Source of the DNA: Macrostomum lignano
Lineage: Eukaryota
Direction of reading: 5' to 3'
Assembly (NCBI GenBank): GCA_002269645.1
Contig: NIVC01000669.1
Coordinates: 1-64,000 of the forward strand
DNA: 64,000 bases
In this document: piece by piece, positions 2,766 through 22,619 of the stretch
How the letters are laid out: each line of letters starts with the position of its first letter
How positions within the stretch are numbered: position 1 is the stretch's first letter
Position numbers and translations under genes: made by a program
Notes under the pieces: model-generated
What the model was told of the DNA's origin: nothing
Databases searched by the model: none
The model's input: only the letters and a program-made list of their open reading frames with translations

Positions 2766-5700
2766 TTAACGAGGTCGCAGATTATAGCCGTGCGGCTGGC
2801 TCTCGTTCGTTGTTTGAGTCTCCTCGTGCTTCGTTGCGATGTGGCGGTTTGTCGAACGCGTGCGGTCGGCATTGTCAAGTGACGGTAGAAATGTCGCCGT
2901 GTCAGTGTTGATCCTTTTCAATCGATGAATGTGCACGTAGAATTGGTGCTGATGAGGATCTTGCACATTGGCCAGGCGTGCCGTTGTCGGTAACGTTAGT
3001 TGGACCACTCGATATGGTCCTTTGTACTTCTGTGCGTGTTTGTGCGTCTGTTGTGGCGGATAGTGCAGGTAGACGATGTCGCCGGCTGTCAGAGTTGTCG
3101 ATCTCGTGTCGGTGCCGGTGGTCAGAGCCACCTGATTGTCGATGTTGTGCTTGGCTACTTTCCATGCGAGGTGTAGTTGCGTGACGAACTTTTGAATGGA
3201 CGTCGGGACTTCCACATATTGCGATGGTAGTAGTTGCTGTGCCAATAGGTTTGGCGGCTGGAAGTCTCGCCCAAACATTAGAAAGAATGGCGTATTATCC
3301 GTTGATCGATGAATAGCGCTGTTGTAGGCCATTGTTACTGCTTGCAGATAGATGATCCAGTCGTCCGGTTGTTGATGCGCGAAGTGTGTAATCATCTCGT
3401 GTAGGTTGCGGTGAAACCTTTCAACCATGTTCGCCTTCGGATTGTAGGTCGATGTGTAGATCTGCGTGATGTTGAGGATCTTCACCACTTGCTGAAAGAG
3501 TTGAGACGTAAACTGCGATCCATTGTCCGATGTGAGGTTCTTTGGCGTACCGTACTTGCAGATGATGTCGTTGAAGAAACCCATTGCCACTGTCTGAGCT
3601 GTGATGTCCGGTATTGGTATGGCAATAGCAAACTTTGAGAAAATGTCCAAGGCTGTTAGGATGTAGGTGTAGGCTATGCCATGGAGACAGCTCGGTGGCA
3701 GCGGTCCGGTGATGTCGATGCTGAGACAGTCCATAGTCGTTGACTTCGGTATCGATTGTAGCTGTGGTTTTTGTCGTCGTCCTGTCTTTGATGCTGCGCA
3801 TGAGTGGCAGTTATTGCAATACTGCTTGATGTCGCCATGCATGCTTGGCCAAAAGTAGTATTGCTCCACTCTTGCAATGGTTTTGGCTGCCGACAGGTGT
3901 CCAGCGAGTGGGTTGTCGTGCAGCTCGTTGAGAATGGCCTGCCTAAACGAATATGGCATGTAGATTTTAGGTTTGTTGTCACTCATCCAGTAGAGTCGTG
4001 TCTTGTTGATTGTTAAATGTTGTCGCTGCTTGCGCAGGAATTTTCGTTCCACGGGGCTGAGCTTGATGTCCTTGTCGTTGTTTTTAACTGCTATGTAGAA
4101 GTTGTCGTGTTCAGTCTCATCCACCAATTCCTTGATGTTAGGGATTGGATGAATGGCGTTGACTTCGTAGGTTCTTGACAGAGCGTCCGCCGCCTTGTTA
4201 GTAATTCCTGGTTTGTAGACGAGCTTGTAGTTGTAGTCCTGGATCTTGAGTGTCATCCTGATGAGTCGGTTGTTTGTTTGTCCTTTTGTAGTTACGACGT
4301 AGGTCAGCGGTGCGTGATCTGTGCGTACTATCGTCGTATTGGAGAACCATAGATGTAGTAATGGAACTGTCGTAGGGCGAACAAGACTCCTAGTAGTTCT
4401 CGTTCCGTAGCGGACCATTTTGTCTCATTCGGTTTAAGTGCTCGACTGACGTAGGCTATAGGTCGTTCCTTTTTGTCTTCAGTTTCCTGTAGTAGGACTG
4501 CTCCGAGTCCCGTTCCTGAGGCGTCTGTCTCGATGATGAAGGGTTTGTCGAAGTCCGGATGCTGTAGCAGTGCGTCTGATGTCAGCTGTCGTTTGATTTC
4601 GTCAAAACTTTCTTGTTGCTTTTGTGTCCAATTATCCTGCTTCCATTTGTCGAACTTGAGCAGGTCGTACAGCGGCTTTGCTGTCTTCGCGAAGTTGGGT
4701 AAGAACTTTCGGAAGTATTGCGCTAGTCCAAGAAATGATTGGACCTTCGTTATGCTAGTTGGTGTAGGAAACTTCTTTACTTTCTCCACATTGTCTGGGT
4801 CCGGTGAGATTCCTTTGGCTGTCACTTGGTGTCCTAGGTAACGTACGTTGTCTCGGAAGAATTTGCATTTCGTCGGTTGTAGCTTAAGACCTTGGCGTTG
4901 AATGAGCGCTAGGGCCTTCTCCGTAGCTTCATAGAGTCGTTGGAAGTCTTCTCCGTAGGCCAAGATGTCGTCGACATAGTGCAGCAGGTTTGTGCATCCT
5001 GCAAGCATGTATGCCGTTAGTCGGCTCATTGTTGCTGGGCTGTTGCTGAGTCCCATTGGCGACCGGTTGTACTCGTAGACTTGTCCATTGTAGGTTTTGA
5101 AAGCCGTGTACTGTCGTGATTCTTTCTCGATTTCAATTTGCCAAAATCCATGACGTAGGTCGAACACCGTGAACAATTTTGCTGTGTTGAGCTTTGCTAG
5201 TAGCTCGGAGATCTTTGGTAGGCTTTGCTGATCCGTCGGTATGTACTTGTTCAGCAGTCTGAAGTCGCATACAAGTCGTCTTTCGTTAGTCTCCTTCTTT
5301 TGTACCAGTAGGCACGGTGAGGAATAGGCTGAAATTGCTTTGCTGATGATGCCGTGCTTTAGCATTTTATCGATAATTTCATCAAAGTGTTGTTGCAGAT
5401 GTTTGGCAATCGGGTACGGCTTGCATTGAATTGGTTCCGTGTGCGGTAGAAGCTTGATTTCTTGTTTAATGTCTTTAGCGCGTCCGATGTCGTAATCATG
5501 ATGGCAGAAGGCTTCGTTGTACTTCCACAACAGTTGTCGAACTTTCTTCTTTTGCTGTTCCGTGATCGGGCTGTCGTCCAAGTTGATTTTCTTTTGAAAT
5601 TCTTCTTCTGTTAGTCGTGGAGTCGTGTGCTCAATCAGCATAACTGATGCTTGAGTGTTGAGATGACCGATGCACATTCCTTGTCGTAGATGAACCATTT

Positions 5701-8700
5701 CCGCGTTCGGGTTGAAGATTTGTACTGGCAGCTGCTTATCTTTTGCCACCAGCACTAGTGCCGTAGGCATCATAATTTGGTGTTTAGCCGTGACTCTTCT
5801 GTTTGGGTCGAATATCATTGCTTCCTCCGTTGCGTTAGTTGCCTTTGCCTTTATCCAGCAGGCGCTCTCCGGTTGGATGATGACATCTTGTTGCAATGTT
5901 ACTTTTGGTAGTACTCGGATCTGGTTGATCAATGGTTGTTCTACCGAGTCGATCTTGAACGTTTGCTTATTGAAGTCGAAGGTCAATGGTAGTCGAAGCT
6001 GCTTGAACGTGTCGATGCCAACAATAACGTCCTGGTTTGGGAGTCTGTCGATGACGTACGTTGGAACTGTCAAATGTTTATTAGCGATTCTTAAATCAAT
6101 GTCGGCTTTTCCCAGAATGTTTAGCGAATGTCCTCCTGCTCCTGCAACTGCGATTGTTGCTGGCCGTAGAGCAAGTCGTAGCTTGTTGCACAGTTGTTTT
6201 GATATAACTGTAATGGAGCTGCCGGAGTCCAGTAACGCTCGACATGGTAGATTGTTGATTATAACTTGAGCCATTGCTTTGCCAATTTCGGCGTGTAGAG
6301 TACATACGTAGTTTTCTGGCCATTTTGGGTCTTGCTGTTCTGCTTGATAGTTAGGTGGTTGTATTCTTGGTGCCGTTGGTGTTGTCGGAATCGATGGATA
6401 TAGCCGCGTTGCTAGTGTCGGTTGCCCTTGAACCTCACGATGTGCAGTTTCTGTTAGTTCTAAACTGTTGTCGCCTTCCGTTGTCGTTCTTTGCATTATG
6501 GCATTCACTGTCTTCTTAGCTCTTGGACAAGTTTGACTGAAGCACCGTACGATTGACGAAATGATGAAGATTGCCGTGGCAATCCACACAATGCAAGCAC
6601 CGTAGAAGATGAATCCTTGATAGAGACTGCCTCTTCCATTGAGCAGCTCCCAGAAGCTGTTTGTCCAAAATGATTTGATGGCGCTGTCCATTGAAACAAG
6701 GACGGGAAATCTTCCTGTCCCGGTTCCTTTGTCCTTTCTTGTGAACAGCTGGTGAATCATCTTGCGTTGGGTGATGAACGCTTGCAAGAAGTCGTTGATC
6801 GTCCATCCTGGTGTTATTTCGTCAAGTTGGGTATCGGCGAATGGCCTATACTTTGTTCTGTTGAATCGGATTTTCAAATCCTCCATGTCGTAGTTTTCGT
6901 CGACGATTACTTCCGGTTCTGTGATGTTTGCTGTCGTTCCAGTTGTTTTGATGACGTGTAGTGCATTGTCCAGTTGATAGTAGTTCGCTGCCGTGGTGCA
7001 AGGTCTCGGTATTGCGGTGCCAACGATGATGTTGTGTACCGTGTCCAAGAATCCTTGAATTCGTTTTCCTTCGTAGAACGCTTCAATCCTTGGCTTGTCG
7101 TAGCAGGTTGTTGACGTGTTTGACGGCAAGATGTTGAAGTGCTGTATCGGCGTGCACTTGTATATCAACAGATGCTCGTATATTGGAACTGCCAAAACGT
7201 TCGTCATTCCGGTGATTTTACGAAAAGTCATCGTAGGGTTGACATAGTAGTTTTGTCTGGCATAATTTAAGTTGATTGCGTGCATTTTGCAAGTTAGCTG
7301 GACCAGTGTTCGATGCAAGTGGTTTAACTGGTTGTGTAGATTGTGATCCAAAGCCGTTATCTTTGCTGACAGTAGTCGGTTTGACACTAGTTTGGGACGT
7401 TCGATGTCTCGTCGTCGTCTGTTCTGTTGTTCCTGCTGTTGATACGTTCCGTTGATGATCGCCAGAAAGGTTTGTTTGTCGTCTTCTTTTACGTAGACTG
7501 GTATCTCTTGTTCCGAGATGAATAGTGTCTTGTCTGTATCCTTGCATTTCAGTTTTTGCTCGACTGGTTTCTTTTGAAACGTCAGTGCCAAGTCTCCTGA
7601 CTTTGCCAAAAACGTATTTGACAGTAGACCTCCTTCAACTGTGTGATACTTTTGAAGCTTGCAGTCAATTTCCGGCTCAACTTCCCACGCGAAGAAGTAT
7701 TGTCGTGACTTAGATGGTTCTTCATATCGTGAGTCGCCTCTGCGTATAATTTGCCATCGATAGTCTTGATGATATGTTGGACTCAACGGTAAGCTGTATA
7801 GTTCCTCATTCCGCAGTATCGGCGTTGGACACCATCCTTTGCTGTATCGGCAGTCGCTTAATTGCAGTTGTAGCGACTCCATTTTTTCAAAAGGATTGTG
7901 ATAGAATGGAATATTCCTGATTAGGTAACTGTTTCGTGTCATGTAGTTAGTCCATGCTTCCGAAAAGTGTACATATCGTCCGTTTGCTGAGTTCTTCGTT
8001 CGGTAAAGTTGTGCCTCCCCCACTTTCTCATCCGGTTCTAGCTGACCATCCTTTGAGAACAGTGTTTGGTTCCATTGTAGACATTCAGCGTGCGACACAT
8101 GTAGTTCGTGTTGCCAAAATCGAATTCTGTTCCACTGTCCTCGCCAAACTTTTTCCACTAGGTGCTTGTCTCTGAAGCACACTATTCCGTGTTGTCGATG
8201 CTTTTTGATGTTAGCCTTGTAGAGGTCGAGTGTAATCTTCTTTGGCTTCGTTTGGTTTGTCTTGAAGTAGCTGCATTTGATGTCGGTTGGTATCTTGTAG
8301 ATCATCGGTTGGATATGCGCATCCGTTGGACATATCATTGGTTTCTCCATTGCTGTTGCTTTGGTGACTACTGCCGTCAGTAGTATTATGATGATCCAGA
8401 ATATCCAGAATCGCCATTTTCTGAACGTTGCCGTTGTCTTTGCTGGCATTGGCTGCGGCTGCCATTCGTTATCTTCTGCGTCCGCATCGTATTCTTCCTC
8501 TTGTTCCATTGGCGTTTCCGAGCGCAAGGCATCCGATTCGTTCCGCTGCTTGTCGTCTTCATCATTTTCTTCCTTGCTTTCTTCCGATGTTGTAGTTGTG
8601 TCACTCCATTGTCTGCGGTACCTCACTTCGGCCTTGTAGTCGACCGTTTGAATGTAGGCTTCACCATTTCGTTTATATCGGATCTCGTAGCATTGATCGC

Positions 8701-10780: not shown

Positions 10781-11832
10781 TGATGTGTTCCTTATTACCA
10801 GTCCTCAGCTGTAATCAAGGAACAATCACTTCTAGCTCTGTAGCTAGGCAACCCAGTAATCAAATGAAGGTATGTATTACCTTGAGTCCTGTCTCTGAGA
10901 GCTCTTCCGTGTTCTGTTATTCTCGGACTTCCTTTGAACCTCGAACTTCGTTAGACGTCTATGTTCGTAACCAGGTCCGCGTTCCTTTACGTCCACTGAA
11001 GTCGTTTCCGGCCGGTATCTGTAGTGCGGACCAATGGGAAGCTTCCAAATCAACAATGGGTACCCTGCGCCAATCTGCGGTTTAATATAAGCCTACTCCT
11101 TCTAGCAGTGCCTCCATGCACTCTAGGTATAGCTCCGGAAACCACTGATAGTCTTCTAAGATCTATCAGGGGCAGTCCTTCTGGAGACTGCAACCAGCAG
11201 AGTCTAAACAGACTCAGGAGTCTCAACAGACTCAAATAAACTCAAGTCTCAATAGACTTGAGCGAGACGTCTCAACCAACAGGCGCAAATGAGTAAGGCT
11301 TACCGCAAGAACTCGTCCACGACGCGAGTTTCTTCAGGAAGGCTTCGCTAGAGCTTCCTCTTCGGAGCTTCTCTCTCTTGGAGATTTCTTGGCTCCGGGT
11401 CCGTTCCGGACCACTTGTATTTATAGGCGTTCAGACCTCTCTCGAGGTCGTACATCACTGTCTTCGCAAATGTCAAAGGGTCACGATTCGGTGGCTGTCA
11501 AGCATGACAGGGTAGAAAGTTGCGCAACTAGTCTACTGTAAAAGCGCATGATTGGTTACCGTAGCTGGTAGACTTTGATTGGTTCATCCGGGTGCAACCC
11601 GAGTGCAAACCAAATGATGACTTGAAGGTGGGGTTTGAATTGACAGTTGTTGGTCGCACGTGATTGGGTGATTTCTAAAATTAGCATGCTCGAGATTTCT
11701 CTCTTTCTATTGGTTAATTCGAATATATGTATGGTTCAGCGCATATCCTTATACATGCTCCTCAAATTACTACTATTTAAGTAGTACGTTAACAATTTTA
11801 AATAACTTTTCTGGGAGATATAATACTCTACA
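10781..11832 (-). repeat. Shared middle LTR (5' LTR of copy A = 3' LTR of copy B), 1052 bp
   Basis: Flanked by the PBS on the left and the PPT on the right. TG...CA termini (left edge could be 10784). No differences from 21568-22619 seen by eye. Confidence 0.95.
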
Positions 11833-12043: not shown

Positions 12044-12682
12044 TCAGCCGAACCCGATTTTGAGCACGGCGGATATCTGCTGCGCTGTTCGCGCAGCCAG
12101 ACATGCCACCGCCCAGAATGTCGGCTGAAAGCGTGTGAAGCGCGGTTCCTCTGTGCGCTCGAGTATCATCAGGTAGGCGTCAATACTCGTGAGTCCTGGG
12201 TGCTCGCGAGCCAGGCTCCTGGAAATTCCAAGGACGTGACGCCATGACTCCTGATGCCGGTGCGGCCACGGCCACGACCGGACGGCGATGGACAATTGCT
12301 CGAAGGTCAAGCTGTCCGGCTCCGCCAACGTCAACTCTGGCACTGGTGTTATTGTCGCCAACATCAGCGCCGTCGAATGGTTGACAGGAGCTAGACATTC
12401 GGTGCAGATCTCTATATCTCTTGCACCGTACCTTCGGAGACAGCTTGCACAGACCCAATGTCGGTTGGAACACACCTGAACATGGGGCTGTTCGCCGCAT
12501 ACCACACAGGTAGCCCGCGCGCGACGGCAGACCGGGCAGGTAGATAGCATGGTAACATTGCCATCCACCTGCTGCGCCATGGCGTCGCAGGAGACACACA
12601 CGCGGTGTCCCCACTCACACGTCGGGATCATATAGTCCCGCGTCTCGAGACAGCAGGGGCATACGTCGTTGTTCTCGGCCAT
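12044..12682 (-). CDS. Retroelement accessory ORF3, double RING-HC protein (copy B)
   Basis: Translation identical to 1258-1896. Confidence 0.85.
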   Translation of the reverse strand: MAENNDVCPCCLETRDYMIPTCEWGHRVCVSCDAMAQQVDGNVTMLSTCPVCRRARATCVVCGEQPHVQVCSNRHWVCASCLRRYGARDIEICTECLAPVNHSTALMLATITPVPELTLAEPDSLTFEQLSIAVRSWPWPHRHQESWRHVLGISRSLAREHPGLTSIDAYLMILERTEEPRFTRFQPTFWAVACLAARTAQQISAVLKIGFG

Positions 12683-12736: not shown

Positions 12737-13405
12737 CTACTGTGTATACCGTAAAAGCCATATGAAATAACTACGTGACAAAATTAGTCTTTTTAGCGCG
12801 TGGCAATATATGTGCAATGTCCAGTGAAACGCGTGATGGGCATGCAAAAATTGTCGTAGATGTCGTTCTATATCCAGGGGTAACATATGACGCAATATTC
12901 CTTGATTGTTATGTGCGTACAGTAGTAATTCATTGCGTGACCGTCGAGCGAAACGAGGTACTGGCCAAAACTCTAGCAACTGTTCGATACGTATTGCGGG
13001 TAGTGTTCGAATATTATCAACATGTAAGCATCGATTGGCGTCGGGCTTGATGCGACACCACTTCTTGAAGGTGCTGTCCTTCGGCATACTGTTACACATA
13101 GGGCATCCTATGATGCCCCTACTAGCGGTTCGTTTCAAGCATTGCATGCAAATAAAATGACTTTGATTACAGTATTGAAAGGTGCGCCACGAATAACAAT
13201 AGGCGCACTGCGTCAGACTACTCCTACATAGGGGGCAGCTTTGCCAGTGTTGGATATGATGCGCGTCACACAAGCAAGTGCCGCATATGCGATGATTATT
13301 TATACAAATGGTTGGTGGTTTTTTATGCAGGTCATCTTCCAAACAGACAGGGCATTCATAGAGTTGCCGTGGCTGGGTCGCCAGTCTAGACTGTGCATTG
13401 CCCAT
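12737..13405 (-). CDS. Retroelement accessory ORF2, myristoylation motif plus double RING-HC (copy B)
   Basis: Translation identical to copy A; ATG at 13405 gives MGNAQS. Confidence 0.85.
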   Translation of the reverse strand: MGNAQSRLATQPRQLYECPVCLEDDLHKKPPTICINNHRICGTCLCDAHHIQHWQSCPLCRSSLTQCAYCYSWRTFQYCNQSHFICMQCLKRTASRGIIGCPMCNSMPKDSTFKKWCRIKPDANRCLHVDNIRTLPAIRIEQLLEFWPVPRFARRSRNELLLYAHNNQGILRHMLPLDIERHLRQFLHAHHAFHWTLHIYCHALKRLILSRSYFIWLLRYTQ

Positions 13406-13551: not shown

Positions 13552-16500
13552 TTAACGAGGTCGCAGATTATAGCCGTGCGGCTGGCTCTCGTTCGTTGTT
13601 TGAGTCTCCTCGTGCTTCGTTGCGATGTGGCGGTTTGTCGAACGCGTGCGGTCGGCATTGTCAAGTGACGGTAGAAATGTCGCCGTGTCAGTGTTGATCC
13701 TTTTCAATCGATGAATGTGCACGTAGAATTGGTGCTGATGAGGATCTTGCACATTGGCCAGGCGTGCCGTTGTCGGTAACGTTAGTTGGACCACTCGATA
13801 TGGTCCTTTGTACTTCTGTGCGTGTTTGTGCGTCTGTTGTGGCGGATAGTGCAGGTAGACGATGTCGCCGGCTGTCAGAGTTGTCGATCTCGTGTCGGTG
13901 CCGGTGGTCAGAGCCACCTGATTGTCGATGTTGTGCTTGGCTACTTTCCATGCGAGGTGTAGTTGCGTGACGAACTTTTGAATGGACGTCGGGACTTCCA
14001 CATATTGCGATGGTAGTAGTTGCTGTGCCAATAGGTTTGGCGGCTGGAAGTCTCGCCCAAACATTAGAAAGAATGGCGTATTATCCGTTGATCGATGAAT
14101 AGCGCTGTTGTAGGCCATTGTTACTGCTTGCAGATAGATGATCCAGTCGTCCGGTTGTTGATGCGCGAAGTGTGTAATCATCTCGTGTAGGTTGCGGTGA
14201 AACCTTTCAACCATGTTCGCCTTCGGATTGTAGGTCGATGTGTAGATCTGCGTGATGTTGAGGATCTTCACCACTTGCTGAAAGAGTTGAGACGTAAACT
14301 GCGATCCATTGTCCGATGTGAGGTTCTTTGGCGTACCGTACTTGCAGATGATGTCGTTGAAGAAACCCATTGCCACTGTCTGAGCTGTGATGTCCGGTAT
14401 TGGTATGGCAATAGCAAACTTTGAGAAAATGTCCAAGGCTGTTAGGATGTAGGTGTAGGCTATGCCATGGAGACAGCTCGGTGGCAGCGGTCCGGTGATG
14501 TCGATGCTGAGACAGTCCATAGTCGTTGACTTCGGTATCGATTGTAGCTGTGGTTTTTGTCGTCGTCCTGTCTTTGATGCTGCGCATGAGTGGCAGTTAT
14601 TGCAATACTGCTTGATGTCGCCATGCATGCTTGGCCAAAAGTAGTATTGCTCCACTCTTGCAATGGTTTTGGCTGCCGACAGGTGTCCAGCGAGTGGGTT
14701 GTCGTGCAGCTCGTTGAGAATGGCCTGCCTAAACGAATATGGCATGTAGATTTTAGGTTTGTTGTCACTCATCCAGTAGAGTCGTGTCTTGTTGATTGTT
14801 AAATGTTGTCGCTGCTTGCGCAGGAATTTTCGTTCCACGGGGCTGAGCTTGATGTCCTTGTCGTTGTTTTTAACTGCTATGTAGAAGTTGTCGTGTTCAG
14901 TCTCATCCACCAATTCCTTGATGTTAGGGATTGGATGAATGGCGTTGACTTCGTAGGTTCTTGACAGAGATACCGCCGCCTTGTTAGTAATTCCTGGTTT
15001 GTAGACGAGCTTGTAGTTGTAGTCCTGGATCTTGAGTGTCATCCTGATGAGTCGGTTGTTTGTTTGTCCTTTTGTAGTTACGACGTAGGTCAGCGGTGCG
15101 TGATCTGTGCGTACTATCGTCGGTATTGGAGAACCATAGATGTAGTAATGGAACTGTCGTAGGGCGAACAAGACTCCTAGTAGTTCTCGTTCCGTAGCGG
15201 ACCATTTTGTCTCATTCGGTTTAAGTGCTCGACTGACGTAGGCTATAGGTCGTTCCTTTTTGTCTTCAGTTTCCTGTAGTAGGACTGCTCCGAGTCCCGT
15301 TCCTGAGGCGTCTGTCTCGATGATGAAGGGTTTGTCGAAGTCCGGATGCTGTAGCAGTGCGTCTGATGTCAGCTGTCGTTTGATTTCGTCAAAACTTTCT
15401 TGTTGCTTTTGTGTCCAATTATCCTGCTTCCATTTGTCGAACTTGAGCAGGTCGTACAGCGGCTTTGCTGTCTTCGCGAAGTTGGGTAAGAACTTTCGGA
15501 AGTATTGCGCTAGTCCAAGAAATGATTGGACCTTCGTTATGCTAGTTGGTGTAGGAAACTTCTTTACTTTCTCCACATTGTCTGGGTCCGGTGAGATTCC
15601 TTTGGCTGTCACTTGGTGTCCTAGGTAACGTACGTTGTCTCGGAAGAATTTGCATTTCGTCGGTTGTAGCTTAAGACCTTGGCGTTGAATGAGCGCTAGG
15701 GCCTTCTCCGTAGCTTCATAGAGTCGTTGGAAGTCTTCTCCGTAGGCCAAGATGTCGTCGACATAGTGCAGCAGGTTTGTGCATCCTGCAAGCATGTATG
15801 CCGTTAGTCGGCTCATTGTTGCTGGGCTGTTGCTGAGTCCCATTGGCGACCGGTTGTACTCGTAGACTTGTCCATTGTAGGTTTTGAAAGCCGTGTACTG
15901 TCGTGATTCTTTCTCGATTTCAATTTGCCAAAATCCATGACGTAGGTCGAACACCGTGAACAATTTTGCTGTGTTGAGCTTTGCTAGTAGCTCGGAGATC
16001 TTTGGTAGGCTTTGCTGATCCGTCGGTATGTACTTGTTCAGCAGTCTGAAGTCGCATACAAGTCGTCTTTCGTTAGTCTCCTTCTTTTGTACCAGTAGGC
16101 ACGGTGAGGAATAGGCTGAAATTGCTTTGCTGATGATGCCGTGCTTTAGCATTTTATCGATAATTTCATCAAAGTGTTGTTGCAGATGTTTGGCAATCGG
16201 GTACGGCTTGCATTGAATTGGTTCCGTGTGCGGTAGAAGCTTGATTTCTTGTTTAATGTCTTTAGCGCGTCCGATGTCGTAATCATGATGGCAGAAGGCT
16301 TCGTTGTACTTCCACAACAGTTGTCGAACTTTCTTCTTTTGCTGTTCCGTGATCGGGCTGTCGTCCAAGTTGATTTTCTTTTGAAATTCTTCTTCTGTTA
16401 GTCGTGGAGTCGTGTGCTCAATCAGCATAACTGATGCTTGAGTGTTGAGATGACCGATGCACATTCCTTGTCGTAGATGAACCATTTCCGCGTTCGGGTT

Positions 16501-19500
16501 GAAGATTTGTACTGGCAGCTGCTTATCTTTTGCCACCAGCACTAGTGCCGTAGGCATCATAATTTGGTGTTTAGCCGTGACTCTTCTGTTTGGGTCGAAT
16601 ATCATTGCTTCCTCCGTTGCGTTAGTTGCCTTTGCCTTTATCCAGCAGGCGCTCTCCGGTTGGATGATGACATCTTGTTGCAATGTTACTTTTGGTAGTA
16701 CTCGGATCTGGTTGATCAATGGTTGTTCTACCGAGTCGATCTTGAACGTTTGCTTATTGAAGTCGAAGGTCAATGGTAGTCGAAGCTGCTTGAACGTGTC
16801 GATGCCAACAATAACGTCCTGGTTTGGGAGTCTGTCGATGACGTACGTTGGAACTGTCAAATGTTTATTAGCGATTCTTAAATCAATGTCGGCTTTTCCC
16901 AGAATGTTTAGCGAATGTCCTCCTGCTCCTGCAACTGCGATTGTTGCTGGCCGTAGAGCAAGTCGTAGCTTGTTGCACAGTTGTTTTGATATAACTGTAA
17001 TGGAGCTGCCGGAGTCCAGTAACGCTCGACATGGTAGATTGTTGATTATAACTTGAGCCATTGCTTTGCCAATTTCGGCGTGTAGAGTACATACGTAGTT
17101 TTCTGGCCATTTTGGGTCTTGCTGTTCTGCTTGATAGTTAGGTGGTTGTATTCTTGGTGCCGTTGGTGTTGTCGGAATCGATGGATATAGCCGCGTTGCT
17201 AGTGTCGGTTGCCCTTGAACCTCACGATGTGCAGTTTCTGTTAGTTCTAAACTGTTGTCGCCTTCCGTTGTCGTTCTTTGCATTATGGCATTCACTGTCT
17301 TCTTAGCTCTTGGACAAGTTTGACTGAAGCACCGTACGATTGACGAAATGATGAAGATTGCCGTGGCAATCCACACAATGCAAGCACCGTAGAAGATGAA
17401 TCCTTGATAGAGACTGCCTCTTCCATTGAGCAGCTCCCAGAAGCTGTTTGTCCAAAATGATTTGATGGCGCTGTCCATTGAAACAAGGACGGGAAATCTT
17501 CCTGTCCCGGTTCCTTTGTCCTTTCTTGTGAACAGCTGGTGAATCATCTTGCGTTGGGTGATGAACGCTTGCAAGAAGTCGTTGATCGTCCATCCTGGTG
17601 TTATTTCGTCAAGTTGGATATCGGCGAATGGCCTATACTTTGTTCTGTTGAATCGGATTTTCAAATCCTCCATGTCGTAGTTTTCGTCGACGATTACTTC
17701 CGGTTCTGTGATGTTTGCTGTCGTTCCAGTTGTTTTGATGACGTGTAGTGCATTGTCCAGTTGATAGTAGTTCGCTGCCGTGGTGCAAGGTCTCGGTATT
17801 GCGGTGCCAACGATGATGTTGTGTACCGTGTCCAAGAATCCCTGAATTCGTTTTCCTTCGTAGAACGCTTCAATCCTTGGCTTGTCGTAGCAGGTTGTTG
17901 ACGTGTTTGACGGCAAGATGTTGAAGTGCTGTATCGGCGTGCACTTGTATATCAACAGATGCTCGTATATTGGAACTGCCAAAACGTTCGTCATTCCGGT
18001 GATTTTACGAAAAGTCATCGTAGGGTTGACATAGTAGTTTTGTCTGGCATAATTTAAGTTGATTGCGTGCATTTTGCAAGTTAGCTGGACCAGTGTTCGA
18101 TGCAAGTGGTTTAACTGGTTGTGTAGATTGTGATCCAAAGCCGTTATCTTTGCTGACAGTAGTCGGTTTGACACTAGTTTGGGACGTTCGATGTCTCGTC
18201 GTCGTCTGTTCTGTTGTTCCTGCTGTTGATACGTTCCGTTGATGATCGCCAGAAAGGTTTGTTTGTCGTCTTCTTTTACGTAGACTGGTATCTCTTGTTC
18301 CGAGATGAATAGTGTCTTGTCTGTATCCTTGCATTTCAGTTTTTGCTCGACTGGTTTCTTTTGAAACGTCAGTGCCAAGTCTCCTGACTTTGCCAAAAAC
18401 GTATTTGACAGTAGACCTCCTTCAACTGTGTGATACTTTTGAAGCTTGCAGTCAATTTCCGGCTCAACTTCCCACGCGAAGAAGTATTGTCGTGACTTAG
18501 ATGGTTCTTCATATCGTGAGTCGCCTCTGCGTATAATTTGCCATCGATAGTCTTGATGATATGTTGGACTCAACGGTAAGCTGTATAGTTCCTCATTCCG
18601 CAGTATCGGCGTTGGACACCATCCTTTGCTGTATCGGCAGTCGCTTAATTGCAGTTGTAGCGACTCCATTTTTTCAAAAGGATTGTGGTAGAATGGAATA
18701 TTCCTGATTAGGTAACTGTTTCGTGTCATGTAGTTAGTCCATGCTTCCGAAAAGTGTACATATCGTCCGTTTGCTGAGTTCTTCGTTCGGTAAAGTTGTG
18801 CCTCCCCCACTTTCTCATCCGGTTCTAGCTGACCATCCTTTGAGAACAGTGTTTGGTTCCATTGTAGACATTCAGCGTGCGACACATGTAGTTCGTGTTG
18901 CCAAAATCGAATTCTGTTCCACTGTCCTCGCCAAACTTTTTCCACTAGGTGCTTGTCTCTGAAGCACACTATTCCGTGTTGTCGATGCTTTTTGATGTTA
19001 GCCTTGTAGAGGTCGAGTGTAATCTTCTTTGGCTTCGTTTGGTTTGTCTTGAAGTAGCTGCATTTGATGTCGGTTGGTATCTTGTAGATCATCGGTTGGA
19101 TATGCGCATCCGTTGGACATATCATTGGTTTCTCCATTGCTGTTGCTTTGGTGACTACTGCCGTCAGTAGTATTATGATGATCCAGAATATCCAGAATCG
19201 CCATTTTCTGAACGTTGCCGTTGTCTTTGCTGGCATTGGCTGCGGCTGCCATTCGTTATCTTCTGCGTCCGCATCGTATTCTTCCTCTTGTTCCATTGGC
19301 GTTTCCGAGCGCAAGGCATCCGATTCGTTCCGCTGCTTGTCGTCTTCATCATTTTCTTCCTTGCTTTCTTCCGATGTTGTAGTTGTGTCACTCCATTGTC
19401 TGCGGTACCTCACTTCGGCCTTGTAGTCGACCGTTTGAATGTAGGCTTCACCATTTCGTTTATATCGGATCTCGTAGCATTGATCGCTGTCGGAGCTTAG

Positions 19501-20871
19501 ATTTCTTTCTTCCATTCCTTTGTGCCTTCCGTCTTCATGTGCTTTGTCGACGGCTTGGTTGTCATCAGCGTCATTGTGCATCTCATAATCGTGATCGCTG
19601 CTTTCTTCTCGCTGTTCTTCTTCCATTTCTGCATTTCCGTCGTTGCTTATTTCGTTGTCATCCTTCGTTGCCAGTTCCTTGTCGTTGCCTTTGTTTGTTT
19701 CTTCTTTTCTTTCATTGATGTCGCTTGGCAATGTTTTTTCTGTGCTCACTTCTGCCTTTTCTTCTTCGCTGTCAATGTTAGTTTCTTTCATTTCGACCAT
19801 GCTGATGTTTTTTGTCTTTTCGCTGCTCTCCGCATCGAGCCAGTCGATTTCATTGATAGTGAAGTCCATTTCTAAGTCGTCTATCGTGAAGACTTGCTGC
19901 TCTTGCTGTTCGCTTTCCGGTGTGTACGTGATGGCGTTTGCATATCGTTGCATCGCTTGCGTTGGTTGCTTGGGCATGTATCTGGCGTTTCGCGGTCTGT
20001 AGCCATTGTTTCCTAAGCGTTTCGTGTTTTGCTGCTGCCAATTTTGATGCTGTTGCCATGGTTTTTGCTGCTTCCGTCTGTTGAATGGCTGTCGCGGCAT
20101 ATCATTTCTTGTTGACCGATGAGGACAATGTATTTGGTAGTGTCCTTCTCGTCCACAGTAATAGCATCTGGCTTGGGCTCGTTCATTTCGTCTTTTTTGT
20201 TCGGCGATAACGGCTGTTTGATGTTGCATCAGCTTGTTTAGTTGCTGTGTCAGTTTCTGCACTTCTGTGTTGCCGGTTGTCATTAGTGGAGCGCTTGCTT
20301 CCCACTGCATTCCGCACCGTAAAAGGTCTTCCTCGGTTTCAATGTTTTCGCGCAAAAGTCTATCCCGCAGTGACGGCTGTGCATTGTTTATTACGTGCAG
20401 GATGAGGTTTTGTTCACGGTCCATCAATCGTTGTCGCTCTCTTGCGGCTAACTCCGCTGCGCCTGGAGGTGGCTGATCCGCCGCTGGCAGCGTTGGCTGA
20501 TGCAGTGCCTTAATTATTTGACGTATATCGTCCACGAAGGTCAGGAAGGATTCTGTTGGCTGCATCCGTCTGTTATGCAACTTGTGCAGTAGCACTGACC
20601 TGTTTGTGCCACAGCGGTTGAAGTGTGCGCGCAGTTGAATGATTAATGCTGGGTAGTTTTGCTGTGTTGCCGCGTCTAGTTTACCATAAATCTCTCGTGC
20701 GGTGCCTTGGAGGAGTGGTGGCAACAGTTGCGCTTTTTCTGGATTTTGTAGGTTGTATTCCCTACATACCAGGTCAAAATGATCAACAAAGGTGTTAAAG
20801 TCTTTTTCCATAGAAAAGGTGCCAACTGTCTCTTTGATATCTCTGTGCACCGTTGGATTGCGCCGCGCCAT
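13552..20871 (-). CDS. Single-ORF Gag-Env-PR-RT-RNaseH-IN polyprotein, 2439 aa (copy B)
   Basis: Capsid-like N terminus; CYYCGREGHYQIHC knuckle aa236-249; LLDSGS protease D1286; RT YVDD aa1703-1706; RNase H IIETDASG D1854; integrase HHCC, DDE (SIDITGP/TSDNGSQF/VERFHR) and GPY; C-terminal YNLRPR. No stop or frameshift. Confidence 0.97.
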   Translation of the reverse strand: MARRNPTVHRDIKETVGTFSMEKDFNTFVDHFDLVCREYNLQNPEKAQLLPPLLQGTAREIYGKLDAATQQNYPALIIQLRAHFNRCGTNRSVLLHKLHNRRMQPTESFLTFVDDIRQIIKALHQPTLPAADQPPPGAAELAARERQRLMDREQNLILHVINNAQPSLRDRLLRENIETEEDLLRCGMQWEASAPLMTTGNTEVQKLTQQLNKLMQHQTAVIAEQKRRNERAQARCYYCGREGHYQIHCPHRSTRNDMPRQPFNRRKQQKPWQQHQNWQQQNTKRLGNNGYRPRNARYMPKQPTQAMQRYANAITYTPESEQQEQQVFTIDDLEMDFTINEIDWLDAESSEKTKNISMVEMKETNIDSEEEKAEVSTEKTLPSDINERKEETNKGNDKELATKDDNEISNDGNAEMEEEQREESSDHDYEMHNDADDNQAVDKAHEDGRHKGMEERNLSSDSDQCYEIRYKRNGEAYIQTVDYKAEVRYRRQWSDTTTTSEESKEENDEDDKQRNESDALRSETPMEQEEEYDADAEDNEWQPQPMPAKTTATFRKWRFWIFWIIIILLTAVVTKATAMEKPMICPTDAHIQPMIYKIPTDIKCSYFKTNQTKPKKITLDLYKANIKKHRQHGIVCFRDKHLVEKVWRGQWNRIRFWQHELHVSHAECLQWNQTLFSKDGQLEPDEKVGEAQLYRTKNSANGRYVHFSEAWTNYMTRNSYLIRNIPFYHNPFEKMESLQLQLSDCRYSKGWCPTPILRNEELYSLPLSPTYHQDYRWQIIRRGDSRYEEPSKSRQYFFAWEVEPEIDCKLQKYHTVEGGLLSNTFLAKSGDLALTFQKKPVEQKLKCKDTDKTLFISEQEIPVYVKEDDKQTFLAIINGTYQQQEQQNRRRRDIERPKLVSNRLLSAKITALDHNLHNQLNHLHRTLVQLTCKMHAINLNYARQNYYVNPTMTFRKITGMTNVLAVPIYEHLLIYKCTPIQHFNILPSNTSTTCYDKPRIEAFYEGKRIQGFLDTVHNIIVGTAIPRPCTTAANYYQLDNALHVIKTTGTTANITEPEVIVDENYDMEDLKIRFNRTKYRPFADIQLDEITPGWTINDFLQAFITQRKMIHQLFTRKDKGTGTGRFPVLVSMDSAIKSFWTNSFWELLNGRGSLYQGFIFYGACIVWIATAIFIISSIVRCFSQTCPRAKKTVNAIMQRTTTEGDNSLELTETAHREVQGQPTLATRLYPSIPTTPTAPRIQPPNYQAEQQDPKWPENYVCTLHAEIGKAMAQVIINNLPCRALLDSGSSITVISKQLCNKLRLALRPATIAVAGAGGHSLNILGKADIDLRIANKHLTVPTYVIDRLPNQDVIVGIDTFKQLRLPLTFDFNKQTFKIDSVEQPLINQIRVLPKVTLQQDVIIQPESACWIKAKATNATEEAMIFDPNRRVTAKHQIMMPTALVLVAKDKQLPVQIFNPNAEMVHLRQGMCIGHLNTQASVMLIEHTTPRLTEEEFQKKINLDDSPITEQQKKKVRQLLWKYNEAFCHHDYDIGRAKDIKQEIKLLPHTEPIQCKPYPIAKHLQQHFDEIIDKMLKHGIISKAISAYSSPCLLVQKKETNERRLVCDFRLLNKYIPTDQQSLPKISELLAKLNTAKLFTVFDLRHGFWQIEIEKESRQYTAFKTYNGQVYEYNRSPMGLSNSPATMSRLTAYMLAGCTNLLHYVDDILAYGEDFQRLYEATEKALALIQRQGLKLQPTKCKFFRDNVRYLGHQVTAKGISPDPDNVEKVKKFPTPTSITKVQSFLGLAQYFRKFLPNFAKTAKPLYDLLKFDKWKQDNWTQKQQESFDEIKRQLTSDALLQHPDFDKPFIIETDASGTGLGAVLLQETEDKKERPIAYVSRALKPNETKWSATERELLGVLFALRQFHYYIYGSPIPTIVRTDHAPLTYVVTTKGQTNNRLIRMTLKIQDYNYKLVYKPGITNKAAVSLSRTYEVNAIHPIPNIKELVDETEHDNFYIAVKNNDKDIKLSPVERKFLRKQRQHLTINKTRLYWMSDNKPKIYMPYSFRQAILNELHDNPLAGHLSAAKTIARVEQYYFWPSMHGDIKQYCNNCHSCAASKTGRRQKPQLQSIPKSTTMDCLSIDITGPLPPSCLHGIAYTYILTALDIFSKFAIAIPIPDITAQTVAMGFFNDIICKYGTPKNLTSDNGSQFTSQLFQQVVKILNITQIYTSTYNPKANMVERFHRNLHEMITHFAHQQPDDWIIYLQAVTMAYNSAIHRSTDNTPFFLMFGRDFQPPNLLAQQLLPSQYVEVPTSIQKFVTQLHLAWKVAKHNIDNQVALTTGTDTRSTTLTAGDIVYLHYPPQQTHKHAQKYKGPYRVVQLTLPTTARLANVQDPHQHQFYVHIHRLKRINTDTATFLPSLDNADRTRSTNRHIATKHEETQTTNESQPHGYNLRPR
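17335..19212 (-). other. Envelope-like type I glycoprotein domain inside the polyprotein (aa554-1179; copy A 6548-8425), gB/chuvirus-like class III fusogen candidate
   Basis: Internal signal FRKWRFWIFWIIIILLTAVVTKATA, Cys-rich ectodomain with N-glycosylation sequons (NQT, NGT, NTS, NIT, NRT), furin site RRRR (aa889-892), long helix ending in C...NP...G...A...C-x-P-I as in gB domain III/IV, TM FIFYGACIVWIATAIFIISSIV. Confidence 0.8.
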
Positions 20872-21567
20872 GTTGTTGATGGGATAGAACGGTAGCTCTA
20901 GGTCTGGGTCGATTTGTAATGGATCTTCCAGTGTGGTGTTTCTTTCGAAATAAACTTCGGTTGTAACTGATTGTCTCGCGGCGCTTTTGACACCTCAATT
21001 TGTTATGTCTGACCTTGAGCGGAATTCGGCTTTTGGCTGCTTTTTCTGACCTCTTATTCGCTGGCTGATTTTCGCACTTATGCGGCGTCCCGCAAAGTGT
21101 ATCTTTAAAGTGCTTGAAGTGCAGCTGCTTCTTGCTTTTTTCAAAGGCCTTTCTTGTCTTCGTGACGTGCCTTGTCACGTTTTATCAAATTTCGGTTTGT
21201 TTTAGCTTTCGTCAAGTGTTTTTAATTTCGGTTTTTTTTTAGTGTGTATTGATTATTTTTCGGTTTGTTTTCAGTGTACCGGACGTTGTTTTCGGTTTTG
21301 TTTAAGGTTTACTCTTGCTCGAGCTCGTTAAAAACAAAAATTTAACACGCGTGCTCAAACGTTACTCAAAATTGACAGGTACTCAAGCCTGTATATCGAA
21401 ACTTTTACTCGCGTTTCAAATCGTAAAAAAATCGAAAAGTGTCGAAAAATTTTACCTCTAACACGTGCGCGCAAAATTAATGAAGTCGCTCTTTCGTCAC
21501 GTTACAATAGCTTGATCAGGGCTATTGCTCAAAGTTTGAGTAGTGCCGAGAGGGCGAGATCACCAAT

Positions 21568-22619
21568 TGATGTGTTCCTTATTACCAGTCCTCAGCTGTA
21601 ATCAAGGAACAATCACTTCTAGCTCTGTAGCTAGGCAACCCAGTAATCAAATGAAGGTATGTATTACCTTGAGTCCTGTCTCTGAGAGCTCTTCCGTGTT
21701 CTGTTATTCTCGGACTTCCTTTGAACCTCGAACTTCGTTAGACGTCTATGTTCGTAACCAGGTCCGCGTTCCTTTACGTCCACTGAAGTCGTTTCCGGCC
21801 GGTATCTGTAGTGCGGACCAATGGGAAGCTTCCAAATCAACAATGGGTACCCTGCGCCAATCTGCGGTTTAATATAAGCCTACTCCTTCTAGCAGTGCCT
21901 CCATGCACTCTAGGTATAGCTCCGGAAACCACTGATAGTCTTCTAAGATCTATCAGGGGCAGTCCTTCTGGAGACTGCAACCAGCAGAGTCTAAACAGAC
22001 TCAGGAGTCTCAACAGACTCAAATAAACTCAAGTCTCAATAGACTTGAGCGAGACGTCTCAACCAACAGGCGCAAATGAGTAAGGCTTACCGCAAGAACT
22101 CGTCCACGACGCGAGTTTCTTCAGGAAGGCTTCGCTAGAGCTTCCTCTTCGGAGCTTCTCTCTCTTGGAGATTTCTTGGCTCCGGGTCCGTTCCGGACCA
22201 CTTGTATTTATAGGCGTTCAGACCTCTCTCGAGGTCGTACATCACTGTCTTCGCAAATGTCAAAGGGTCACGATTCGGTGGCTGTCAAGCATGACAGGGT
22301 AGAAAGTTGCGCAACTAGTCTACTGTAAAAGCGCATGATTGGTTACCGTAGCTGGTAGACTTTGATTGGTTCATCCGGGTGCAACCCGAGTGCAAACCAA
22401 ATGATGACTTGAAGGTGGGGTTTGAATTGACAGTTGTTGGTCGCACGTGATTGGGTGATTTCTAAAATTAGCATGCTCGAGATTTCTCTCTTTCTATTGG
22501 TTAATTCGAATATATGTATGGTTCAGCGCATATCCTTATACATGCTCCTCAAATTACTACTATTTAAGTAGTACGTTAACAATTTTAAATAACTTTTCTG
22601 GGAGATATAATACTCTACA
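21568..22619 (-). repeat. 5' LTR of copy B, 1052 bp; right end of the array
   Basis: Similarity to the other LTRs stops after ...TACTCTACA; host flank begins aacacggg. Confidence 0.95.

Follow-up and report, generated by a model that had tools for sequence, protein, structure and literature searches.

How does a retroelement that encodes its own membrane fusogen leave the cell in which it is made? The question is raised by a Gag-Env-Pol element of the Ty3/gypsy type in the flatworm Macrostomum lignano, found in the first 64000 nucleotides of contig NIVC01000669.1 (assembly GCA_002269645.1), the whole of which we call the window. Ty3/gypsy elements that bear Env occur widely among animals, and their exit from the cell is known only for Drosophila according to the Discussion of PMC13524379, which also calls the transmission of these errantiviruses elusive (here and below, published work is cited from the portions of each text that were available). 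In the window element, the predicted cytosolic tail of the Env protein holds three short motifs, LYPSI, PTAP and PPNY, of the types that bind ALIX, TSG101 and the WW domains of NEDD4-family ubiquitin ligases respectively, and through which the endosomal sorting machinery ESCRT may be engaged. These conserved late-domain motifs suggest a specific and testable exit route for Env-bearing elements in a flatworm, and they are placed on the tail of a fusogen, a site that late-domain reviews, in their available portions, do not list.

The window begins with two tandem copies of the element, A and B (1-22619, minus strand, with the middle long terminal repeat (LTR) common to both), which are 99.9% identical across 11.8 kb and are therefore no independent evidence for the motifs. 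An initial annotation of the window had placed the three motifs in copy B, and again at 6347-6403 in copy A, between the Env transmembrane (TM) helix and the protease, and the sequence confirms this: the block lies 44-62 amino acids (aa) past the second transmembrane segment (TM2) and 40 aa ahead of the protease residue Asp1286 (Table 1). PTAP and PPNY are exact consensus matches, and LYPSI is, as had also been noted, a near match to LYPxL with Ile for Leu. The string quoted in that annotation had the motifs right but ran to 20 residues, its leading R being aa 1227, one codon outside the range given with it; of the location it named, ‘Env tail/PR leader’, the Env tail is the better fit, since the protease fold does not include the motifs. 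The AlphaFold model built for aa 1150-1375 consists of a TM helix, a coil of ~80 residues that holds the motifs, with a predicted local distance difference test (pLDDT) value of ~50, and the protease fold. The motif segment is thus predicted to be disordered and, on a topology that we infer from the two hydrophobic segments of the polyprotein, would be cytosolic and accessible. When the whole polyprotein was scanned, the tail block held its sole matches to P[TS]AP, PPxY and hydrophobic-YPx(1-3)-hydrophobic, and shuffling of the 90-aa tail, a post hoc test, brought all three motifs together in 1 of 200,000 trials.

Motif conservation within the Macrostomum genome

The family sample comprised the best 30 of 58 genome matches to an Env-protease query, and in all 30 loci PTAP, [LM]YPSI and PPxY were kept together, with the P, P and Y of the last motif fixed and x being N, T, I or G. 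The codon test used 16 DNA haplotypes from 29 loci, one locus with an indel being left out. Amino-acid changes were found in none of the ten motif-defining codons, four of which changed silently, versus 25 of the remaining 59 codons of the tail (p=0.011 by Fisher's test, an approximate value, the haplotypes being related and L1228, which is L or M, being left out of the ten). In addition, the x of PPxY was the most variable codon of the tail among the 16 haplotypes. This pattern of substitution indicates that the motifs are under purifying selection now.

Five other Env families of the same genome, read from 21 further stretches, all carry P[TS]AP in their tails, and three of them also carry YPx[LI]. 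Two are sister families, with ectodomains 62-64% identical to that of the window family and tails 30-33% identical; here PTAP is followed by IYPKI, the reverse of the order in the window, with IYP[KR]I at nearly the window position. Of the other three families, one combines PSAP with LYPTL and two have PSAP only.

The two sister families, which have no PPxY in the tail, carry this motif shortly before the first transmembrane segment (TM1), on the other cytosolic side. These are PPPY and PPAY, at polyprotein aa 590 (loci L031 and L032) and aa 121 (locus L034), 26 and 67 aa before TM1, with a probability by chance of ~0.10 and 0.05. With these counted, each of the three motif types is present in the sister families too, except that L032 has no PTAP.

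Tail motifs in distant relatives

A single HMMER search, run on representatives at 50% identity, supplied the distant set, with 167 matches of which 150 were used; word-indexed protein searches returned 1-2 close proteins only. The Env profile was matched by 79 of 151 proteins, and removal of 15 truncated proteins, three without a clear TM segment and two of the window family left 59 tails, 41 followed by a protease and 18 not. Motif-bearing tails numbered 17 of these 59, versus 2.3 expected from shuffling of the whole tail and 2.8-3.1 from local 6-aa shuffling. The counts for P[TS]AP (seven), PPxY (eight) and hydrophobic-YPx-hydrophobic (six) were each above those of all 1000 shuffles, and the corresponding anagram decoys had means of 0.8, 1.2 and 0.5; the decoy [TS]APP also reached seven, because it overlaps the P[TS]AP motif. 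As the query had included the tail, the proteins were rescored without it, whereupon 16 motif-bearing tails remained among 58, and scoring by the ectodomain only left seven among 31, versus 1.25 expected.

The specificity of the enrichment was assessed in 64 tails, including those of the window and of the five families of its genome. The tyrosine proved to be specific: PPxF was found twice versus 1.6 expected, PPxW not at all versus 1.2 and hFPxh (h, hydrophobic) twice versus 0.8, and hWPxh was not enriched either. Nor was there enrichment in these 64 tails of the endocytic signals YxxPhi (34 versus 29.4 expected) and dileucine (5 versus 5.5).

A quick tree of 63 Env rows has 21 that bear a motif, including 7/7 in the clade of the window and 9/11 at the next node, and the motif label changes 12 times on it (at least 7), versus 17.7 times for shuffled labels. 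The distribution indicates that the late-domain trait is lineage-bound and labile, the motifs having been gained, lost and moved, and that it is not universal.

We also examined proteins without Env. A first control of this kind, in which 5 of 24 carried motifs versus 0.94 expected, was rejected, as the tail in two of the five is that of an Env family found in this genome and the other three resemble Env-tail fragments. In a cleaner control, with CCHC directly before the protease, motifs were found in 0/8 database proteins, a small sample with short linkers. The Env-less gypsy loci of the genome (L043-L047; n=5, likewise a small sample) had no motif in the stretch of at most 150 aa that precedes the protease.

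Proposed role of the tail motifs and rival explanations

We consider it probable, with considerable room for doubt, that the three motifs are working late domains on the Env tail, which would recruit ESCRT and NEDD4 for particle scission. The layout read from the sequence suggests that one polyprotein would cross the membrane twice: Gag would be cytosolic and held at the membrane by TM1, the ectodomain, which resembles herpesvirus glycoprotein B (gB), would enter the lumen, and TM2 would return the tail and the protease (PR), reverse transcriptase (RT), RNase H (RH) and integrase (IN) to the cytosol, with putative cuts by signal peptidase after A-T-A and by furin at RRRR. Gag of copy B has no late-domain motif and no Gly at position 2, and therefore the only such motifs of the precursor are those of the disordered tail beside the membrane. 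PTAP would then bind TSG101 (ESCRT-I), LYPSI the V domain of ALIX and PPNY a NEDD4-family ligase, and ESCRT-III/VPS4 would be brought in to sever the neck of a particle that is enveloped and buds away from the cytosol, either at the plasma membrane or into endosomes. The protease would probably release itself afterwards, perhaps at the conserved W-P, so that the motifs may end up either as part of the Env tail or within a short peptide of the p12/p6 kind; which mature product keeps them depends on putative cleavage sites, and the order of events is a proposed one.

Late domains act independently of position and often in sets (PMC7995964, PMC8402826). The same three motif classes occur in one precursor in Gag of murine leukemia virus (MLV; PSAP, LYPAL and PPPY; PMC8402826), and p2b of Rous sarcoma virus has PPPY and LYPSL, the latter one residue off the LYPSI of the window (PMC3705266); in both viruses the motifs are in Gag, whereas those of the window follow the Env membrane anchor of a Gag-Env-Pol polyprotein and none is in its Gag. 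Motifs of the late-domain type outside Gag or matrix are described for NS3 of bluetongue virus (PSAP and PPxY) and UL56 of herpes simplex virus 1 (HSV-1; PPxY) (PMC7995964). Neither is a fusogen or lies within a capsid/polymerase polyprotein, unlike the Env tail of the window. Both are membrane proteins. Foamy viruses have PSAP in Gag, and their Env is encoded by a separate gene and is of a different fusogen class, unlike that of the window element. They resemble it, on the role proposed here, in that the capsid has no membrane-targeting signal of its own and release needs Env (PMC3705266).

A wider proposal, which we put forward only tentatively, is that in some Gag-Env-Pol lineages the fusogen took over from Gag the task of budding. 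Capsid and polymerase would be tethered to the membrane with no matrix domain, by one polyprotein that spans it twice, the gB-like tail would recruit ESCRT-I, ALIX and NEDD4, and only Env-bearing particles would be pinched off and passed between worm cells; RING-like accessory proteins, described below, may act as ubiquitin ligases in the same process. Fusogen-borne budding, if true, would place the assembly of these elements between the polyprotein topology of alphaviruses and the ESCRT budding of retroviruses. If the tail motifs do provide an exit route, ESCRT-dependent budding of retroelements would be confined neither to Gag nor to vertebrate retroviruses, and the way in which motifs are gained, lost and moved across lineages would be a marker of endogenous elements that may still make enveloped particles.

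Several observations weigh against working late domains on the Env tail, the limits of the codon test given above among them. The ALIX-type motif has a terminal Ile where the consensus has Leu, one sister copy (L032) has PNAP in place of PTAP, its YP motif being IYPRI, and PPxY occurs in the tail of just one of the six Env families of the genome and is, taken alone, not significant in the strictest distant set (2/31 versus 0.65, p=0.13). The motif rows are clustered on the tree, so that the 59 tails cannot count as that many independent trials, and P0004, which is among them, belongs to a family of the same genome. No canonical tail motif is present in 42 of the 63 Env-tree rows, and a large separate clade of 30 rows has three that bear a motif, near chance; the architecture therefore does not require the motifs. 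The Gag and spacer regions do not clearly compensate (motifs in 6/36 versus 3.1, p=0.06). On the host side, TSG101 (L052:1252-1992) carries His where the human protein has Tyr63, which we take to be a residue of the PTAP pocket. The initial annotation had proposed that the element buds in enveloped and possibly infectious particles, and this proposal is partly supported. Conservation in related elements, which it had named as a check, was found in part: P[TS]AP and YPx[LI] recur in the window's lineage and all three motifs within its family, and the three-motif cluster is not general.

The alternative that survives best, which we regard as rather unlikely, is that the motifs bind ESCRT and NEDD4 in order to direct Env and the Pol attached to it into multivesicular bodies (MVBs) or to turn Env over, limiting the surface fusogen or loading exosome-like vesicles, and not to cut virions. 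All of the conservation and enrichment results fit it equally, and sequence cannot separate sorting from budding. Two lysines of the tail, aa 1190 and 1191, stand close to the membrane; herpesvirus gB undergoes ubiquitylation and is sorted to the membranes of MVBs, and ubiquitination of foamy-virus Env regulates subviral particles (PMC7995964, PMC3705266). A further point against budding is that the PPxY of a viral membrane protein such as HSV-1 UL56 can serve host-protein turnover and, in the available text of PMC7995964, has no shown role in envelopment. Sorting is disfavoured by the lack of enrichment of YxxPhi and dileucine signals in the tails, and P[TS]AP, YPxL and PPxY together are the set that reviews describe for budding, as in MLV Gag (PMC8402826).

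We think it quite improbable that the YP pairs, like WP, are aromatic-Pro cleavage sites of the protease, with the Pro-rich neighbours serving as a linker and the ESCRT match being secondary. Retroviral proteases do cleave at aromatic-Pro, WP is found in 25/64 tails versus 9.0 expected and in many cases precedes the catalytic Asp by 31-39 aa, and three proteins without WP (P0006, P0030 and P0029) have a hydrophobic-YP motif at -36 to -40. However, cleavage leaves P[TS]AP and PPxY unexplained, no enrichment is seen when Phe or Trp stands for the Tyr of the five-residue motif, and the window and three related families have YPx[LI] plus a separate WP. Very little credence can be given to a relic origin, in which the motifs descend from a p6-like region at the C terminus of an ancestral Gag, stayed beside the protease when env was inserted and no longer matter for release: they do lie just upstream of the protease, as does p6 of human immunodeficiency virus 1, and many relatives are without them, but purifying selection acts on them now, the motifs have moved between lineages, and the Env-less Gag-PR junctions have none (0/8 database proteins, with short linkers, and 0/5 genome loci, both small samples). 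Chance matches in a Pro/Thr-rich disordered linker are hardly credible and largely refuted already, for although the motifs are short, the tail is Pro-rich and the cluster was noticed after the fact, only one shuffle in 200,000 held all three, local shuffles and anagram decoys fail to reproduce the enrichment among relatives, and the defining residues are fixed with variable neighbours.

With regard to earlier work, GAG-ENV-POL Ty3/gypsy elements with a gB-type Env are described from nematodes, bryozoans and flatworms (Chary and Hayashi, eLife, PMC13524379), so that the Gag-Env-Pol architecture, including a Macrostomum member, is already published; the non-canonical nematode endogenous retroviruses of Sacco et al. 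(2022), as cited there, have a flipped Env/Pol order. The main text of PMC13524379, as available, makes no mention of ESCRT, late domains, budding, cytoplasmic tails, RING or accessory open reading frames (ORFs), and a word-initial search of its supplements for late domain, ESCRT and PTAP found none of them. The available portions of the Cer1 paper (PMC10309623) and of PMC1224870 hold nothing on late domains in these elements, and a full-text literature search, with most subscription journals outside its coverage, returned no paper on the subject. We thus found in the searchable literature no earlier report of late-domain motifs on an errantivirus Env tail that are under selection and recur in related lineages.

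The element, its accessory ORFs and host factors

The order PR-RT-RH-IN, a CCHC Gag, TG...CA LTRs, a primer-binding site and a polypurine tract identify the element, at the level of sequence, as Ty3/gypsy (Metaviridae-like). Env is located between Gag and Pol in one ORF, with TM1 and TM2 on its flanks. A profile from 48 Env sequences matches herpesvirus gB chains (E 1e-13), and a model of the ectodomain (pLDDT 79) matches gB of Kaposi's sarcoma-associated herpesvirus, HSV-1, Epstein-Barr virus and cytomegalovirus (Foldseek E 3e-21, template modelling score ~0.47); the match to PF24664 is under that family's curated cut-off. The element belongs to the GAG-ENV-POL errantiviruses with an HSV/gB-type (class III) Env, every feature tested being in agreement. 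Like the window element, the errantiviruses of PMC13524379 have a Ty3/gypsy Pol, a gB-type Env between Gag and Pol, LTRs and many near-identical copies, and one of them, Platyhelminthes_Rhabditophora_Mlig_errantivirus_2, has the same Env type, carries the same species name and has a 12-nt primer-binding site identical to that of the window. Its LTR is 864 nt long versus ~1050 nt in the window element, and the two are probably different copies or subfamilies, judging from LTR length. The database protein P0002, which is 95% identical, carries the species name Macrostomum lignano.

Table 1. Positions of the element's features in the window
Feature	Position	Strand	Basis
Gag-Env-PR-RT-RH-IN, single ORF, copy B, 2439 aa	13552..20871	-	ORF list and Pfam domains
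Gag	20092..20871	-	CCHC knuckle 20125-20166 (aa 236-249)
TM1, signal-anchor/signal peptide, aa 556-580, A-T-A at end	19132..19206	-	hydropathy; putative cleavage site
Env ectodomain, herpesvirus gB-like class III fusion fold, ~570 aa, cysteine-rich	17413..19131	-	profile, model, Foldseek
RRRR, furin-type site, aa 889-892	18196-18207	-	sequence
TM2, Env membrane anchor, aa 1154-1184	17320..17412	-	hydropathy; helix in model
Cytosolic Env tail/linker, aa 1185-1255, predicted disordered	17107..17319	-	sequence, AlphaFold model
LYPSI, ALIX-type YPx[LI] motif, aa 1228-1232	17176..17190	-	sequence
PTAP, TSG101-type motif, aa 1236-1239	17155..17166	-	sequence
PPNY, NEDD4/WW-type motif, aa 1243-1246	17134..17145	-	sequence
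Identical motif block in copy A	6347..6403	-	sequence
Conserved WP (W1255-P1256), candidate processing site ahead of protease	17104-17109	-	sequence
Aspartic protease, catalytic Asp1286 at 17014-17016	16762..17109	-	Pfam from aa 1271-1273; model fold from ~aa 1270
RT, copy B	15610-16089	-	Pfam
RNase H, copy B	15019-15417	-	Pfam
Integrase, copy B	14224-14742	-	Pfam
Accessory ORF 1, cysteine-rich, RING-like	12737..13405	-	sequence; copy A 1951-2619
Accessory ORF 2, cysteine-rich, RING-like	12044..12682	-	sequence; copy A 1258-1896
5' LTR, TG...CA; primer-binding site follows at 21554-21565	21568..22619	-	sequence
Middle LTR of both tandem copies; polypurine tract before, primer-binding site after	10781..11832	-	sequence
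3' LTR of copy A, cut by contig end	1..1046	-	sequence

The Macrostomum genome encodes a TSG101 UEV domain, ALIX-type V domains and WW domains beside HECT domains on the same contigs. The host TSG101, whose UEV domain is present in three equal-scoring copies, keeps Met95 and Tyr68, and a host ALIX copy keeps the equivalent of Phe676, all of which we count as partner-pocket residues; this ALIX has a PSAP of its own after the V domain. A complex prediction for the host TSG101 UEV and a 37-aa tail peptide scored 0.18 versus a mark of 0.34 and counts neither way. Contigs assembled from four read sets, three of them guessed to be RNA, extend across both TM2 and the motif block (X2, 17120-17922; X9, 17120-18203), and another (X5, 17153-17772) covers two of the motifs. 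The database protein P0001 is without exactly the motif block, which fits a 99-nt GT-AG skip; no splice joint was seen at 17127-17225 in the contigs of the four runs, which drop rare forms, and the skip is taken as a probable gene-model artefact.

Cysteine-rich, RING-like accessory ORFs follow the integrase, two in the window element, two in L031-L033 and three in L034, and the identity in the two pairs compared is 34-41%. One relative passes the Pfam C3HC4 cut-off, and it is possible that these ORFs are element-encoded ubiquitin ligases. Accessory ORF 1, which starts with MGNAQS, was considered as a myristoylated, arenavirus-Z-like matrix protein and rejected: its relatives have no Gly, and its Atlas matches were all <0.9.

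A long, acidic, low-complexity spacer (aa 320-545, ~19240-19910) separates the Gag knuckle from TM1; that of the sister families is Pro-rich. Among the more distant Env families of the genome, L035:684-9260, L037 and L039 have longer Env regions, and the L035 family (P0004) carries a long Thr-rich, mucin-like insertion ahead of the furin-type site. The A/B tandem stands at the very start of the contig and is either a recent tandem or an assembly duplication, and the reading frame of copy A is disrupted between RNase H and integrase, near 4328-4418. Positions 27000-64000 of the window hold dense arrays of short tandem repeats with units of 8-40 nt, which give rise to spurious long ORFs.

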